DNA of 64,000 nucleotides from Escherichia coli (GTDB lineage Bacteria > Pseudomonadota > Gammaproteobacteria > Enterobacterales > Enterobacteriaceae). The notes beneath the pieces were generated by a model. It did not search any database. It saw only the letters and a list, made by a program, of their open reading frames with translations, and was not told the DNA's origin. How positions within the stretch are numbered: the stretch's first letter is position 1; each line of letters begins with the position of its first letter. A program made the translations under genes and the position numbers. Below are positions 11,338 through 14,864 of this stretch, piece by piece. The DNA is taken from the NCBI RefSeq assembly GCF_003334385.1, contig NZ_QOWN01000002.1. One strand, written 5' to 3'.

Positions 11338-11400
11338 AACGACCTACGTTAATTACCTCATTGACGGCATGAAGTGTATCAAAATGAAATGAACAGGATA

Positions 11401-11416
11401 TGTGCGACCACTCACA
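11401..11416. promoter_or_regulatory. CRP-binding site upstream of tdcA (tdc promoter)
   Basis: tgtgcgaccactcaca matches the CRP consensus TGTGA-N6-TCACA at 9 of 10 half-site positions; lies about 65 bp upstream of the tdcA start in the tdcA/tdcR divergent region. Confidence 0.6.
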
Positions 11417-11651
11417 AATTAACTTTCAATACTTTCCAGAGTATCGTTGTTACAATTAAATACCTTTAAATATCAACAAGTTAAAGTATAAAAATCAGCA
11501 TAAACCCTGATTTTTGTCAAAAAAAATGACGGGGATAACCATATTTTATGGCGATAACATCATTCGTTATGTGGTTAATACAAAAAAGGGGCTGAGACCA
11601 TATTTCAAGCAATTACCGGATAATTACCAAGCAAAATTTGAGTTAAATTTA

Positions 11652-11870
11652 ATGAGCAAGTTCTCAAATTTTATTATAAATAAACCATTTTCAGTGATAA
11701 ATAATGCGGCATGTCACATTTTTTCACGCTATTTGTTGGAGAACAAACATTTATTTTATCAATATTTTAAAATTTCGAATACATTTATTGATCATCTCGA
11801 ACAATTGATTAACGTCAACTTTTTCTCTTCTGACAGGACGTCATTTTGTGAATGCAATCGTTTTCCATAA
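11652..11870 (+). CDS. tdcR: Small putative tdc operon activator TdcR, 72 aa
   Basis: Track ORF 11514..11870 (118 aa); the annotated TdcR as I recall it corresponds to the C-terminal 72 codons from MSKFSNFIINKPF. Start choice is uncertain. Confidence 0.6.
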   Translation: MSKFSNFIINKPFSVINNAACHIFSRYLLENKHLFYQYFKISNTFIDHLEQLINVNFFSSDRTSFCECNRFP

Positions 11871-12095
11871 ATTCTTCTCCCCTCATAGGCGACGAATAGC
11901 ATTTTGTGTTGAGGATCACAAAACGAATAATTGCTGATCGCCGCGATAAGGTCAGACAAAGACAACAAGGGAAATTTTCACAGAGCTTTTGATCGGCGTA
12001 GGCCACAGAATGTTGCTTCGTTTACTGTAACGCCGGGTAAATGAGCGTTTTTTGATAGTGCGAAAGAACCCTGCGAGGAAAATAAGCATCTATTA

Positions 12096-12665
12096 TTGTT
12101 TGTCATGATGACAAGGCAGGCATCAATGAAAGGCTTCCCAATTGCGCATATTTTTCACCCTTCAATCCCGCCAATGCACGCAGTGGTTAACAATCACAAT
12201 AGAAATATTGATTATTGGACGGTAAAAAGAAAGTTTGCAGAAATTGTCTCCACCAATGACGTTAATAAAATTTACAGTATAAGTAATGAACTGCGGAGAG
12301 TATTATCTGCAATAACTGCATTGAATTTCTATCATGGCGATGTTCCTTCTGTCATGATCCGAATCCAACCGGAAAATATGAGTCCATTCATTATAGATAT
12401 TTCTACAGGAGAACATGATGATTATATCATACAAACATTAGATGTAGGCACTTTTGCACCTTTTGGTGAACAATGTACTTGCTCAGCCGTCAATAAAAAA
12501 GAGCTGGAATGTATTAAGGAGACGATTTCTAAGTATTGTGCAAAATTCACCCGAAAAGAAGCCATCTTAACCCCCCTTGTGCACTTTAATAAAACCAGCA
12601 TTACTTCAGATTGTTGGCAAATTCTCTTTTTTTCACCCGATCATTTTAATAATGATTTTTATTGA
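12096..12665 (+). CDS. yhaB: Uncharacterized protein YhaB, 189-aa ORF
   Basis: Track ORF in an AT-rich segment; no recognisable domain. Position between tdcR and yhaC matches K-12 yhaB. Confidence 0.7.
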   Translation: MFVMMTRQASMKGFPIAHIFHPSIPPMHAVVNNHNRNIDYWTVKRKFAEIVSTNDVNKIYSISNELRRVLSAITALNFYHGDVPSVMIRIQPENMSPFIIDISTGEHDDYIIQTLDVGTFAPFGEQCTCSAVNKKELECIKETISKYCAKFTRKEAILTPLVHFNKTSITSDCWQILFFSPDHFNNDFY

Positions 12666-12686
12666 TTATTTATAAAGGATAAAATA

Positions 12687-13874
12687 ATGTTCCCTGTTTC
12701 ATCAATTGGTAATGATATTAGTAGTGATTTAGTCCGTCGAAAAATGAATGACCTTCCTGAAAGCCCAACAGGAAATAACCTCGAAGCACTAGCACCAGGT
12801 ATAGAAAAACTAAAACAGACCTCTATTGAAATGGTCACTTTACTTAACACGTTACAACCTGGTGGAAAATGCATTATCACTGGTGATTTTCAAAAAGAAT
12901 TAGCGTACTTACAAAATGTAATTCTTTATAATGCCTCGTCTCTTCGTCTGGATTTTTTAGGTTATAACGCCCAAATTATTCAACGATCGGACAATACTTG
13001 TGAACTTACCATTAATGAACCGTTAAAAAACCAGGAAATATCCACAGGTAATATCAATATTAATTGCCCATTAAAAGATATTTACAATGAAATCAGGAGG
13101 TTAAACGTAATTTTTAGTTGTGGGACTGGAGATATCGTTGATCTATCCTCTCTGGACTTACGTAATGTCGATTTAGATTATTATGATTTCACAGATAAAC
13201 ATATGGCTAATACTATTTTAAATCCTTTTAAATTGAATTCAACAAATTTTACTAATGCCAACATGTTTCAGGTTAATTTTGTTAGTTCAACACAAAACGC
13301 CACAATCTCCTGGGATTATTTACTAAAAATAACGCCTGTTTTAATAAGCATTAGCGATATGTATTCTGAAGAAAAAATCAAGTTTGTCGAAAGTTGTTTA
13401 AATGAGCCTGGAGACATTACCGAAGAACAATTAAAAATTATGAGATTTGCAATTATAAAATCTATACCAAGGGCAACTCTTACAGATAAATTAGAAAATG
13501 AATTAACAAAAGAAATATATAAAAGCTCATCGAAAATCATCAATTGCTTGAACAGAATTAAATTACCAGAGATGAAAGAATTCTCATCAGAAAAAATATA
13601 TGATTACATCGATATAATCATTGAAGATTATGAAAATATCAAAGAAAATGCTTATCTGGTCGTCCCCCAAATTAATTATACTATGGATTTAAACATAGAA
13701 GACTCTAGCTCAGAAGAGTTACTTTCAGATAATACCCTCGAGAAAGACGAAAATTCTCCGGACAATGGCTTTGAGGTCGGGGAATATAACACATATGAAG
13801 CATATAACTCAGAGAAGCAATATTTTACCAGAGAGGACTATACGTATGATTACGACCTTTTAAATGCAATATAG
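12687..13874 (+). CDS. yhaC: Uncharacterized protein YhaC, 395 aa, with a pentapeptide-repeat block and an acidic Tyr/Glu/Asp-rich C-terminal tail
   Basis: Track ORF, AT-rich. Residues ~158-198 (RNVDL DYYDF TDKHM ANTIL NPFKL NSTNF TNANM FQVNF) have a hydrophobic residue at every fifth position. Confidence 0.8.
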   Translation: MFPVSSIGNDISSDLVRRKMNDLPESPTGNNLEALAPGIEKLKQTSIEMVTLLNTLQPGGKCIITGDFQKELAYLQNVILYNASSLRLDFLGYNAQIIQRSDNTCELTINEPLKNQEISTGNININCPLKDIYNEIRRLNVIFSCGTGDIVDLSSLDLRNVDLDYYDFTDKHMANTILNPFKLNSTNFTNANMFQVNFVSSTQNATISWDYLLKITPVLISISDMYSEEKIKFVESCLNEPGDITEEQLKIMRFAIIKSIPRATLTDKLENELTKEIYKSSSKIINCLNRIKLPEMKEFSSEKIYDYIDIIIEDYENIKENAYLVVPQINYTMDLNIEDSSSEELLSDNTLEKDENSPDNGFEVGEYNTYEAYNSEKQYFTREDYTYDYDLLNAI

Positions 13875-13989
13875 ACTTAATAACTTCTTACAAAGTCTAT
13901 TATTAATACCGTAGATATTTATTCATCTTACCCTGTGCACCAAAAGCAAAAACTCACTGACGCGGGTTTGAAACTGATGGCAACCGCAA

Positions 13990-14100
13990 AAATGCCTGAT
14001 GCGCTACGCTTATCAGGCCTACGCCATCTCTGCAATATATTGAATTTGCGTGCTTTTGTAGGCAGGATAAGGCGTTCACGCCGCATCCGGCATGAATAAA
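13990..14100. repeat. REP/BIME element (two palindromic units)
   Basis: gcctgatgcgctacgcttatcaggcctac and ggcaggataaggcgttcacgccgcatccggcatg are classic REP sequences. Coordinates approximate. Confidence 0.75.
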
Positions 14101-14117
14101 GCGCACTCAACAATCTG

Positions 14118-14487
14118 AAACCCGCCGGAACGGTTTATTACGTACATCAGGTAAAACTGACCGATAAGCCGCTTTCTTTTGGGTATAGTGTCGTGGACAG
14201 TCATTCATCTTTCTGCCCCTCCAAAAGTAAAAACCCGCCGAAGCGGGTTTTTACGTAAAACAGGTGAAACTGACCGATAAGCCGCTTTCTTTTGGGTATA
14301 GTGTCGTGGACAGTCATTCATCTTTCTGCCCCTCCAAAAGCAAAAACCCGCCGAAGCGGGTTTTTACGTAAACCAGGTGAAACTGACCGATAAGCCGCTT
14401 TCTTTTGGGTATAGCGTCGTGGACAGTCATTCATCTTTCTGCCCCTCCAAAAGCAAAAACCCGCCGAAGCGGGTTTTTACGTAAATC
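14118..14487. repeat. Three tandem 113-bp direct repeats in the rnpB 3' flank, each with a terminator-like hairpin
   Basis: The unit caggtgaaactgaccgataagccgctttcttttgggtatagtgtcgtggacagtcattcatctttctgcccctccaaaag-aaaaacccgccgaagcgggtttttacgtaaa recurs with a 113-bp period. Each copy shares about 45 nt with the 3' end of rnpB and carries the hairpin aaacccgc-cgaa-gcgggttt. A degenerate partial copy precedes them near 14118. Confidence 0.85.

Positions 14488-14864
<377 letters not shown>

Follow-up and report, generated by a model that had tools for sequence, protein, structure and literature searches.

yhaB-yhaC, a lineage-restricted AT-rich gene pair beside rnpB in Escherichia coli, encodes a protein with a short pentapeptide-repeat block

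The genes yhaB and yhaC form a lineage-restricted, AT-rich two-gene unit of ~2.2 kb. An ancestor of Escherichia gained this unit once its line had parted from Salmonella and Citrobacter; the point of entry was the spacer that separates the tdc regulatory region from the terminator repeats of rnpB. To judge from their substitution patterns, both are real genes under purifying selection. Taking all the evidence together, we consider it probable that yhaBC is an acquired and constrained unit, that YhaC provides a beta-helix platform, and that the unit is silenced by H-NS and activated by CRP and perhaps FNR.

Results

Identity and base composition of the region

Megablast and RefSeq annotation identified positions 11450-13900 of the 64-kb stretch of E. 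coli DNA analysed here (the window) as E. coli K-12 tdcR, yhaB and yhaC, adjoining rnpB (Table 1). This is an already annotated locus, and what a sequence-only reading of the window had picked out there is correct and mostly ordinary; both yhaB and yhaC are among the K-12 genes that are still uncharacterised. The AT-rich segment noticed beside rnpB was confirmed by windowed GC, at 33% against a mean of ~50.7% for the 64-kb window. Across 11400-13800 the GC content is 0.28-0.35, compared with ~0.50-0.58 in the flanks, and no other 2451-bp segment of the window is as poor in GC as 11451-13901 (0.330; window mean 0.506, s.d. 0.044). Codon usage is likewise atypical of the host, GC3 being 0.28 in yhaC and 0.31 in yhaB, compared with 0.42-0.53 in neighbouring genes (0.53 in garK).

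The three genes had been taken for a single acquired islet. This holds for yhaB-yhaC and not for tdcR, which is AT-rich, yet its DNA is part of the ancestral tdc regulatory region outside the insert: the DNA at 11364-11863 has homologues in Salmonella and Citrobacter at 67-68%. On the other side, rnpB is 98.7-99.7% identical across Salmonella, Citrobacter and E. coli, and the copy number of the 113-bp unit next to it falls to one in L002 and L003.

Table 1 Features of the yhaB-yhaC region, in window positions
Feature	Position	Strand	Basis
tdcR (72 aa)	11652..11870	+	RefSeq annotation; NCBIfam NF008507, E=4.5e-50
FNR-type site TTGATTAACGTCAA	11805..11818	+	unique match in window; site sequence in PMC1802558
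Escherichia-specific insert (yhaB upstream region, yhaB, yhaC, 3' spacer)	11871..14100 (boundaries approximate)		Salmonella/Citrobacter comparison and haplotype identity
CRP palindrome TGTGT-N6-TCACA, ~205 bp upstream of yhaB start	11905..11920	+	unique match in window
yhaB (179 aa; orphan; Pfam PF27690/UCP004546)	12126..12665	+	RefSeq annotation, alignment, profile searches
T7 homopolymer near yhaB 3' end	12627..12633	+	sequence; altered C-termini beside it in common allele classes
yhaC (395 aa; NCBIfam 'YhaC family')	12687..13874	+	NF007262, E=1.2e-268
YhaC N-terminal region, residues 1-145	12687..13121	+	no detectable homologue; 74% identity, omega 0.26 between haplotypes
Ten pentapeptide repeats, YhaC 149-198 (2.5 turns of quadrilateral beta-helix, predicted)	13131..13280	+	period-5 statistic, allele invariance, profile matches
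YhaC residues 205-325, predicted helical (low confidence only)	13299..13661	+	DSSP on low-confidence full-length model
Acidic, Tyr-rich, fast-evolving tail, YhaC 326-384	13662..13838	+	37% identity, omega 0.56 between haplotypes, 6-codon indel
C-terminal near-invariant motif YTY(D/N)YDLLN(A/E)I, YhaC 385-395	13839..13871	+	alignment of 12 alleles
Extra degenerate copy of rnpB 3' repeat unit, directly after yhaC stop, within insert right end	13910..13969		repeat families D2, D3
REP/BIME-like palindromic elements, yhaC to rnpB repeats	13984..14096		sequence read directly
Three tandem 113-bp units 3' of rnpB, each a hairpin then a T run	14106..14528		repeat family D1, inverted repeats I1-I3
rnpB (RNase P RNA), conserved right-hand neighbour	14488..14864	-	Rfam RF00010, 318.6 bits

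Extent, distribution and origin of the insert

Related loci were reached through TdcA homologues, a route that covered Salmonella, Citrobacter, Pseudescherichia and E. albertii. In Salmonella enterica and Citrobacter freundii the syntenic site is empty: the arrangement garK-rnpB-tdcA is conserved with a ~1.2-kb gap that gives no YhaB or YhaC signal, and tdcR-homologous DNA runs nearly directly into the rnpB repeats. Only yhaB codons 8-46 remain in E. albertii, where the site is not empty but has undergone a secondary deletion, and the DNA at 14054-14105 is present there too. With absence in two genera and a remnant in a third lineage, yhaBC is not universally conserved by vertical descent, in line with the sequence-only reading. 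YhaC forms a single full-length 50%-identity cluster among 1.84 billion representatives, the named members of which are exclusively E. coli, Shigella or Escherichia sp.; no full-length homologue beyond Escherichia was found in that set.

At least 80% of yhaC is present in 4296 of 5426 complete E. coli genomes (~79%), and ~20% have it deleted. In E2348/69 (EPEC) two internal deletions have removed 12229-12955 and 13019-13830, and in some genomes yhaC is interrupted by IS1. Since its entry, the unit has persisted in ~79% of complete E. coli genomes, has diversified strongly, and has been lost piece by piece from others, such as E2348/69, and from E. albertii. Its frequent loss, together with insertions of IS1 and frameshifts in yhaB (see below), indicates that many lineages can dispense with it.

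At the insert we found neither mobility genes, such as an integrase or transposase, nor meaningful flanking direct repeats, and yhaBC matched no phage copy and nothing in the PHROGs library. A plasmid source was considered and rejected: among the 'plasmid' matches, the longest three are records of 4.8-4.9 Mb that seem to be mislabelled chromosomes, and the next in length, a record of 354 kb, is non-mobilizable. A search for a donor lineage was equally negative, and the case for horizontal transfer therefore comes from composition and distribution. The compositional anomaly and the patchy distribution both stand for yhaBC and suggest transfer; a de novo or fast-evolving origin could also account for them. 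A foreign origin of the yhaC region had been predicted by earlier methods, and the literature already reports both its horizontal origin and the binding of H-NS to it (PMC3661553), neither being new here.

Upstream regulatory sites

The two genes lie on the same strand with 21 bp between them and appear as one operon, yhaB,yhaC, in a published table (PMC12218254). The FNR-type site is assigned to yhaB in a published FNR ChIP-chip table (PMC1802558), and the CRP palindrome is listed as an in vitro CRP site of yhaB (PMC12871828). In the divergent haplotype described below, the palindrome is within DNA that has stayed conserved, the DNA around it being ~81% identical. A promoter island within yhaC is given as H-NS-bound 'according to all studies' (Table 1 of PMC3661553). 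These published binding data suggest that yhaBC would normally be silenced by H-NS. It may be switched on together with the neighbouring tdc operon through the conserved CRP site, perhaps with FNR, and the conditions for this would be those of an anaerobic, catabolite-poor gut.

The pentapeptide block of YhaC

Eight consecutive pentapeptides had been proposed at about residues 158-198 of YhaC. The block was recovered, and its count was revised: the period-5 statistic gives ten tandem repeats at 149-198. The pentad centres (153, 158 and so on to 198) read L,L,L,F,M,L,L,F,M,F, and the preceding position (i-1) is D/N in 7 of the 10, so that the block has the features of the pentapeptide family, namely at least eight tandem pentads with an L/F(/M) centre, strict period 5 and a D/N-rich i-1 position. 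Not one of 20,000 shuffles produced a ten-long L/F/M run at spacing 5, the longest shuffled run being 8, and none of the ten centres varies among 12 alleles with identities down to 66%. The pI of the block is 4.2.

Curated models place the block below threshold (Pentapeptide_4, E=0.14, or 0.057 for the best allele; PF00805, E=6.4; NCBIfam NF052603, E=0.12 and 12.5 bits against a cut-off of 125). When the YhaC profile was run against 1.84 billion proteins, it matched long repeat proteins at E values of 1e-10 to 1e-3. The distant matches run only through positions ~140-210, and 14 of 14 tested are pentapeptide proteins by Pfam, which places the homology to recognised pentapeptide proteins at profile level. 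The best intermediate protein matches solved structures at E=2e-19, and hhalign gave a probability of 97.9% for the block, with templates chosen by their similarity to YhaC.

A model of the segment alone reached pLDDT 71-77, with a beta-bridge every fifth residue; it leans towards a beta-helix because its input alignment was enriched in true pentapeptide proteins. All 48 of its 48 Foldseek matches are pentapeptide folds or NleL/SopA effectors, at non-significant E values of at least 0.12. Profile matches, hhalign, invariant centres and the segment model all uphold the pentapeptide-repeat reading. We infer that residues 149-198 would fold as 2.5 turns of a right-handed quadrilateral beta-helix, a fold that the enriched model does not establish independently. 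Pentapeptide domains in solved structures are generally longer than this, so the YhaC helix may need capping by its flanking regions. EcoGene/EcoCyc may have labelled YhaC a 'pentapeptide repeats-related protein'; none of the papers searched uses that phrase.

Architecture of YhaC and YhaB

YhaC is a soluble, acidic (pI 4.4), multi-part orphan protein, composed of an N-terminal region (residues 1-145), the pentapeptide block, a low-confidence helical region, and a tail with a terminal motif. It has no predicted transmembrane segment (KD19 maximum 1.07). Neither residues 1-145 nor 205-395 matched anything outside their own family in a profile search of 1.84 billion representatives, a PDB sequence search gave no significant match to YhaC, and no known domain passes a curated threshold. 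The full-length AlphaFold2 model, built from 12 alleles, has a pLDDT of 32 and is unusable. Several weak matches were discarded as noise: residues 31-142 to methylene-THF dehydrogenase (E=0.01), residues 238-317 to the LinB C-terminal domain (E=0.03), and others to DUF5876 and Pox_VLTF3.

Of the compositional features proposed for the two ends, the Glu/Asp/Tyr-rich C-terminus was borne out (26% D+E, 11% Y and a pI of 4.05 over 326-395), and the Ser-rich N-terminus is only mildly so, with 17% Ser in residues 1-30 vs 8% overall. N-terminally truncated classes of YhaC occur, for example P0029. Between haplotypes, residues 205-325 are 71% identical, with omega 0.25. The terminal motif (385-395) is 91% identical, vs 37% in the tail just before it, and nine of its residues (Y385, T386, Y387, Y389, D390, L391, L392, N393 and I395) are invariant in 12 of 12 alleles.

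YhaB has a pI of 6.4 and is well conserved over residues 1-113. Frameshifted C-termini are common in yhaB, and the cluster alignment shows altered C-termini in clusters P0076 (3287 members) and P0078 (232 members). The YhaB family profile found nothing in the PDB even at E=10, and nothing in the copy of Pfam searched. A weak NCBIfam Bud32 match (E=0.005) and an 'HGD' motif raised the idea of a minimal Bud32/RIO/OspG-like kinase; the H of the motif is not conserved (H/Q/K), and this reading was dropped.

Selection and haplotype diversity

Against the divergent haplotype, omega is 0.24 for yhaB and 0.31 for yhaC. In neutral simulations at 22% nucleotide divergence, the yhaC frame stayed open in 0 of 20,000 runs (mean, 11 stops) and that of yhaB in 209 of 20,000; the sole indel between the haplotypes is a multiple of three. 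Within YhaC, omega is highest on the helix surface (0.40) and in the tail, and no region exceeds 1 in the pairwise haplotype comparison.

The locus ranks with the more polymorphic sites on the E. coli chromosome. From ~11690 to 14083, identity between E. coli haplotypes is 64-89%, compared with 92-100% in the flanks, and YhaC falls into allele classes of 99, 95, 93, 89, 88, 87 and 66% amino-acid identity, together with an apparent intragenic recombinant. The haplotype pair has dS values of 0.52-0.63 over yhaBC (0.52 in yhaB), whereas the flanking DNA of these two strains gives 0.07-0.13; the yhaBC values match those of the E. coli-E. albertii flanks (0.38-0.79). The 66%-identity haplotype is carried by 'Escherichia sp. 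HH091_1A', whose flanks are 96.5-98.6% identical to K-12, which makes this strain effectively E. coli; a search for the donor of the haplotype identified none. At an identity of at least 95%, the divergent haplotype is present in 19 of 5426 genomes.

Such diversity could mean that yhaBC serves as an interaction module and is subject to balancing or diversifying selection, exerted for example by phages, competitors or a host, which if true would account for very old haplotypes within E. coli. The haplotype dS, the ladder of allele classes with its recombinant and the raised omega on the helix surface and tail all favour this, and in a published scan for positive selection yhaC is one of the 14 top-ranked genes (PMC9110714). 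However, omega stays at or below 1 throughout the pairwise comparison, the divergent haplotype is rare, and the defence-system and phage-protein libraries PADLOC and PHROGs gave no credible match. Introgression from an unsampled Escherichia lineage would produce the same pattern, and low expression and AT-biased mutation may account for part of the raised dS. We judge selection of this kind unlikely. Slightly less likely still is its fuller form, in which yhaBC would be no decaying cargo but a working interaction module, either secreted or host-directed or else aimed at phages or competitors, its surface and acidic tail diversifying while its core and DYDLLN(A/E)I stay fixed, with haplotypes as old, by dS, as the E. 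coli-E. albertii split kept under balancing selection.

We give the same low weight to the idea that the two frames are silenced, non-functional junk in neutral decay, in which the period-5 pattern would have no structural meaning. Loss from ~20% of genomes, IS1 in yhaC, common frameshifts at the yhaB C-terminus, truncated YhaC classes, reported H-NS silencing and the lack of any domain above a curated threshold could all be read as decay, but omega is well away from 1, and the simulations rarely leave yhaB and never leave yhaC open. Furthermore, the variation seen in neighbouring residues spares the ten repeat centres and the terminal motif, and although the upstream DNA has otherwise diverged, the stretch that contains the CRP site is conserved.

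Discussion

The reading we prefer, that of an acquired and constrained yhaBC, has purifying selection acting on the unit despite H-NS binding and frequent loss. In YhaC, the beta-helix would have a fixed L/F/M core and a variable surface, and the block may serve as a small rigid protein-binding platform rather than a DNA mimic; the tail and terminal motif would offer a second, peptide-type contact. Three findings help to focus further work on the pair: YhaC has a genuine, sub-threshold pentapeptide module below the length of Qnr-like mimics, selection on both genes is purifying, and the locus is highly polymorphic. Unless a partner or phenotype emerges, this matters little in practice.

Alternatively, YhaC could be a type III secretion substrate, still active or a relic, comparable to PipB2/EspX or NleL/SopA, with a beta-helix and a C-terminal host-targeting motif, and with YhaB as its chaperone or partner. 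Its multi-part architecture around the pentapeptide block, its place in an AT-rich, H-NS-bound islet, its mildly Ser-rich N-terminus, and its fast-evolving surface and tail would suit such a protein. Acidic DxxLL sequences are sorting signals in eukaryotes, and the near-invariant DYDLLN(A/E)I resembles them. The Foldseek matches to NleL and SopA beta-helix domains are non-significant, however, and reflect the shared solenoid only. Outside the repeat block YhaC showed no homology to any of 1.84 billion representatives, and yhaC is under purifying selection in K-12-type genomes, which, as commensal strains, are not known to have a working injectisome. YhaB, at 179 aa and pI 6.4, is larger and less acidic than class I chaperones. 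On this evidence, a type III substrate seems unlikely, slightly more so than decay. That YhaC is a DNA mimic of the Qnr/MfpA/McbG type, binding and protecting DNA gyrase or topoisomerase IV, is very improbable: the acidic pentapeptide repeats fit, and Qnr and MfpA are among the weak fold matches, but they match no better than other pentapeptide proteins, ~87% of YhaC (345 of 395 residues) lies outside the block, and ten repeats or 2.5 turns, an estimated ~12 Å, are too short for a mimic of the Qnr type, in which the helix makes up nearly the whole ~180-220 aa.

Among known systems, yhaBC resembles the H-NS-silenced xenogeneic islets or 'promoter islands' of E. coli K-12 (PMC3661553) in being AT-rich, H-NS-bound, predicted foreign and absent from sister genera. 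It differs from them in lacking an integrase, a tRNA-type attachment site and flanking direct repeats, and it adjoins the terminator repeats of RNase P RNA. PipB/PipB2 and EspX are type III effectors in which a pentapeptide-type solenoid is part of a larger protein encoded in AT-rich acquired DNA; YhaC shares with them, and with NleL/SopA, a solenoid within a larger multi-domain protein and AT-rich acquired DNA. It has no sequence relationship to NleL/SopA outside the repeats, and no HECT-like or other catalytic domain. The analogy with PipB/PipB2 drawn by the sequence-only reading goes no further than the repeat type, since an exhaustive profile search of the 1.84 billion representatives, and a search of the PDB, gave no homology outside the block. 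With Qnr, MfpA, McbG and AlbG, YhaC has the repeat type and an acidic surface in common. The analogy proposed with Qnr and MfpA fails on size: their helix has roughly 8-10 turns and takes up nearly the whole chain of 180-217 aa, whereas YhaC devotes 50 of 395 residues to 2.5 turns. YhaC also resembles the pentapeptide-repeat proteins (PF00805/PF13599), represented by the solved structures of Np275/Np276 (2j8k), HetL (3du1) and alr1298 (6uvi). YhaC differs from these in having only ten repeats, set within 395 aa of which 345 are orphan, and in an i-2 position that is often bulky (Y, K, F) instead of A, S or T. It shares with them A(D/N)LXX-type pentads with L/F/M at every fifth residue, its block aligns with bona fide members ungapped and in register, and its segment model superposes on 2j8k, 3du1 and 6uvi at 0.8-2.0 Å over 41-64 columns.

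Layout and base composition of the locus

The window is K-12-like E. coli sequence, and tdcA and tdcB lie on the left side of the segment at 11450-13900. GC content is 0.28-0.35 across 11400-13800, compared with about 0.50-0.58 in both flanks, and no other 2451-bp stretch of the 64 kb has a GC as low as the one from 11451 (0.330; mean 0.506, sd 0.044). GC3 is 0.28 in yhaC and 0.31 in yhaB, and 0.42-0.53 in the neighbouring genes. The windowed GC and GC3 values thus bear out the claim of the sequence-only reading that the segment is AT-richer than its surroundings. The locus is already annotated, and earlier publications cover both its foreign character and its H-NS binding; no new kind of system is revealed here.

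Features of the tdcR-yhaB-yhaC-rnpB interval
Feature	Position	Strand	Description
tdcR	11652-11870	+	NCBIfam name TdcR
FNR-type site	11805-11818		upstream of yhaB
CRP palindrome	11905-11920		near-perfect; upstream of yhaB
yhaB	12126-12665	+	179 aa; only precomputed Pfam entry PF27690/UCP004546
T7 homopolymer	12627-12633		near the 3' end of yhaB
yhaC	12687-13874	+	395 aa; NCBIfam 'YhaC family protein' NF007262, E=1.2e-268
Degenerate fourth repeat unit	13910-13969		directly after the yhaC stop
REP/BIME-like palindromic elements	13984-14096		between yhaC and the rnpB repeats
Three tandem 113-bp units	14106-14528		3' of rnpB; each with hairpin AAAAACCCGCCGAAGCGGGTTTTT
rnpB	14488-14864	-	right of the REP-like elements and the three 113-bp tandem repeats

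The 113-bp unit is present as a single copy in EPEC E2348/69 (locus L002) and in a strain carrying a divergent haplotype (locus L003). Positions 14054-14105 are retained in E. albertii though yhaC is gone.

The neighbouring tdc operon responds to the same signals, CRP and FNR, for which sites lie ahead of yhaB. The CRP palindrome was bound in vitro in a published genome-wide assay (PMC12871828), and the stretch that contains it is well conserved in the divergent haplotype, with identity of only about 81% in the DNA around it; the FNR-type site is listed for yhaB from published genome-wide FNR ChIP-chip. Promoter islands have been listed at tdcA/tdcR and within yhaC, the latter H-NS-bound 'according to all studies' and foreign by earlier prediction methods (PMC3661553). 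Together with the 21-bp gap between yhaB and yhaC on the same strand, where a Shine-Dalgarno-like AAGGA precedes yhaC, these sites and the published H-NS binding lead us to expect that yhaBC would be silenced by H-NS and relieved via CRP and possibly FNR.

Distribution, origin and loss of yhaBC

Among 15 billion collected proteins, full-length YhaC forms one 50%-identity cluster, and its named members are all E. coli, Shigella or unclassified Escherichia. In Salmonella enterica and Citrobacter freundii the garK-rnpB-tdcA order is conserved, with only about 1.2 kb from garK to tdcA, and no YhaB or YhaC signal is seen. DNA homologous to 11364-11863, tdcR included, is present in both at 67-68%, so the Escherichia-specific insert spans about 11870-14100 and comprises yhaBC without tdcR. 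The proposal of an acquired tdcR-yhaB-yhaC islet consequently holds for yhaBC as a lineage-restricted insert and fails for tdcR. Searches turned up neither an integrase nor flanking direct repeats, and no copy on a phage or a true plasmid. A phylostratigraphy study lists the yhaB-yhaC operon as young and homogeneous (PMC12218254). In E. albertii, homology extends to 11936 and is followed by a yhaB scrap (codons 8-46, 54% amino acid identity), a REP element and the rnpB repeats; the scrap indicates that yhaBC was already there before E. coli and E. albertii diverged, its deletion in E. albertii coming later.

The 72-aa tdcR ORF is broken up in Salmonella and Citrobacter (tblastn pieces of 31-51 aa at 33-48% identity; compared loci L007 5475-5973, L008 5526-5998 and L012 5477-5686). 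E. albertii TdcR is only 58% identical, and the version in the divergent haplotype of E. coli 83%, so that tdcR itself changes unusually quickly for a named activator.

At least 80% of yhaC is carried by 4,296 of the 5,426 complete E. coli genomes; about 590 retain small remnants only (a 63-nt fragment, for example) and about 540 give no match. E2348/69 has two internal deletions, 12229-12955 and 13019-13830. IS1 lies within yhaC in some complete genomes (hits H1 and H47), and IS insertions would also fit the many draft assemblies whose partial YhaC proteins start or stop near residue 169 or 221.

Coding constraint and deep polymorphism

Loss of yhaBC is clearly tolerated, as would be the case if the two genes were decaying neutrally. 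This explanation is contradicted by tests of selection between K-12 and the divergent haplotype L003, whose YhaC and YhaB share 66% and 77% amino acid identity with those of K-12. We obtained a dS of 0.52 and omega of 0.24 for yhaB, and a dS of 0.63 and omega of 0.31 for yhaC; the flanking tdcB, tdcA and garK gave dS 0.07-0.13 and omega <0.04. When the observed 259 substitutions were placed at random in 20,000 trials, the yhaC ORF remained open in none (mean 11 stops) and that of yhaB in 209. The omega values and simulations thus indicate that yhaB and yhaC are, by their sequence evolution, real genes under purifying, though relaxed, selection. In a published scan (PMC9110714), yhaC ranks with the 14 strongest signals of positive selection; in our pairwise estimates no region exceeded an omega of 0.56.

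The haplotype dS of 0.5-0.6 matches that of flanking genes between E. coli and E. albertii (0.38-0.79). Identity between K-12 and the divergent haplotype (loci L003-L006, L014 and L015, 6001-7170) falls sharply at about 11690-14083 and is back up at rnpB. YhaC allele classes form a ladder of 99, 95, 93, 89, 88, 87 and 66% amino acid identity, and one allele, P0030, is an apparent intragenic recombinant, K-12-type over about its first 250 residues and identical to the divergent haplotype in its C-terminal part. Few genomes carry the most divergent haplotype, which sits at the same locus (19 of 5,426 complete genomes at ≥95% nucleotide identity, plus 17 intermediates). Its carriers, 'Escherichia sp. 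HH091_1A' included, have E. coli-like flanks 96.5-98.6% identical to K-12, and for this reason no donor lineage was identified. These haplotypes could reflect balancing selection, an introgression whose source lineage is unsampled, or a substitution rate that is raised locally.

YhaB C-termini are altered in the large allele clusters P0076 (3287 members) and P0078 (232), so that the last third of YhaB looks, from these sequences, dispensable or phase-variable. A reading of YhaB as kinase-like was considered and set aside.

The pentapeptide block of YhaC

The sequence-only reading had counted eight consecutive pentapeptides in YhaC; the block stands, with ten, centred on L153, L158, L163, F168, M173, L178, L183, F188, M193 and F198 and with D or N at position i-1 in seven. 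Ten L/F/M residues at period 5 occurred in none of 20,000 shuffles of YhaC, the longest shuffled run being 8. None of the ten centres varies among 12 YhaC alleles with identities down to 66%; the positions around them do vary, the block being 60% identical overall between haplotypes with an omega of 0.40.

Curated models miss this block (Pfam Pentapeptide_4, E=0.14; NCBIfam Alr5209 model, E=0.12), and PDB pentapeptide chains match YhaC at E 0.06-3. When 1.84 billion representatives were searched exhaustively with an HMM of the YhaC family, non-family matches (E 1e-10 to 1e-3) were confined to profile positions about 140-210 and usually spanned several stretches of one long protein; all 14 tested were Pfam pentapeptide-repeat proteins. 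The best intermediate, P0140, matches solved pentapeptide structures at E=2e-19, and MAFFT places the ten pentads in register, gapless, with distant pentapeptide proteins. Alignment of YhaC alleles with true pentapeptide segments by hhalign gave 97.9% probability over 70 columns, with an optimistic E-value because the templates were chosen for likeness to YhaC. At the sequence level, the profile search settles the assignment of the block to pentapeptide repeats.

A full-length AlphaFold2 model with the 12 alleles as input reached a pLDDT of only 32, too low to speak for or against a beta-helix. A second model, of residues 130-225 with distant pentapeptide segments added to the alignment, gave pLDDT 71-77 across 150-199 and an isolated beta-bridge at each fifth residue, the spacing expected for a quadrilateral beta-helix. 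Foldseek of this model against the PDB returned 48 matches, all of them pentapeptide-repeat structures, designed beta-solenoids or NleL/SopA effectors, with RMSD 0.8-2.0 Å over 41-64 columns but E ≥0.12. We rate a quadrilateral beta-helix as likely and no higher, because the alignment behind the model leaned toward that fold.

Remaining parts of YhaC

YhaC has an overall pI of 4.4 and no transmembrane segment (KD19 maximum 1.07), and profile search of the 1.84 billion representatives detected no relatives of residues 1-145 and 205-325. Weak matches were seen to methylene-THF dehydrogenase (residues 31-142; 5zf1, E=0.01), Pfam DUF5876 (126-236; E 0.006-0.08) and a lincosamide nucleotidyltransferase C-terminal domain (238-317; 3jyy, E=0.03). 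The C-terminus is acidic and Tyr-rich, as had been claimed, with 26% D+E and 11% Y in 326-395. Residues 326-384 evolve fastest (37% identity between haplotypes, omega 0.56, a six-codon indel), and the final 11, YTY(D/N)YDLLN(A/E)I, are almost invariant, which points to a functional terminal peptide. The motif resembles eukaryotic acidic DxxLL signals, a likeness that could be chance.

Proposed role and comparison with known systems

The descriptive part of the YhaC model is well supported. As to function, we infer as the most likely reading that YhaC resides in the cytoplasm and binds protein. Its beta-helix of 2.5 turns, fixed in the hydrophobic core, would expose a surface that varies; a second contact would come from the acidic tail with the conserved peptide at its end, and YhaB would be the co-expressed partner. 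An effector role would be no more than an analogy, drawn from the repeat type in common, the setting in an islet and the weak fold matches to NleL/SopA.

Beyond the earlier observation, which was correct, the analysis firmly assigns, at profile level, a pentapeptide module that falls below the curated thresholds. It also proves coding constraint on yhaB and yhaC and documents how deep the polymorphism is at this site and that loss has recurred there. The earlier interpretation survives for the lineage-restricted insert and the pentapeptide block, and not for a DNA mimic of the Qnr/MfpA type, a model now excluded for YhaC. That analogy fails on size: in Qnr and MfpA the helix is the whole protein, whereas in YhaC it would account for only 50 of 395 residues.
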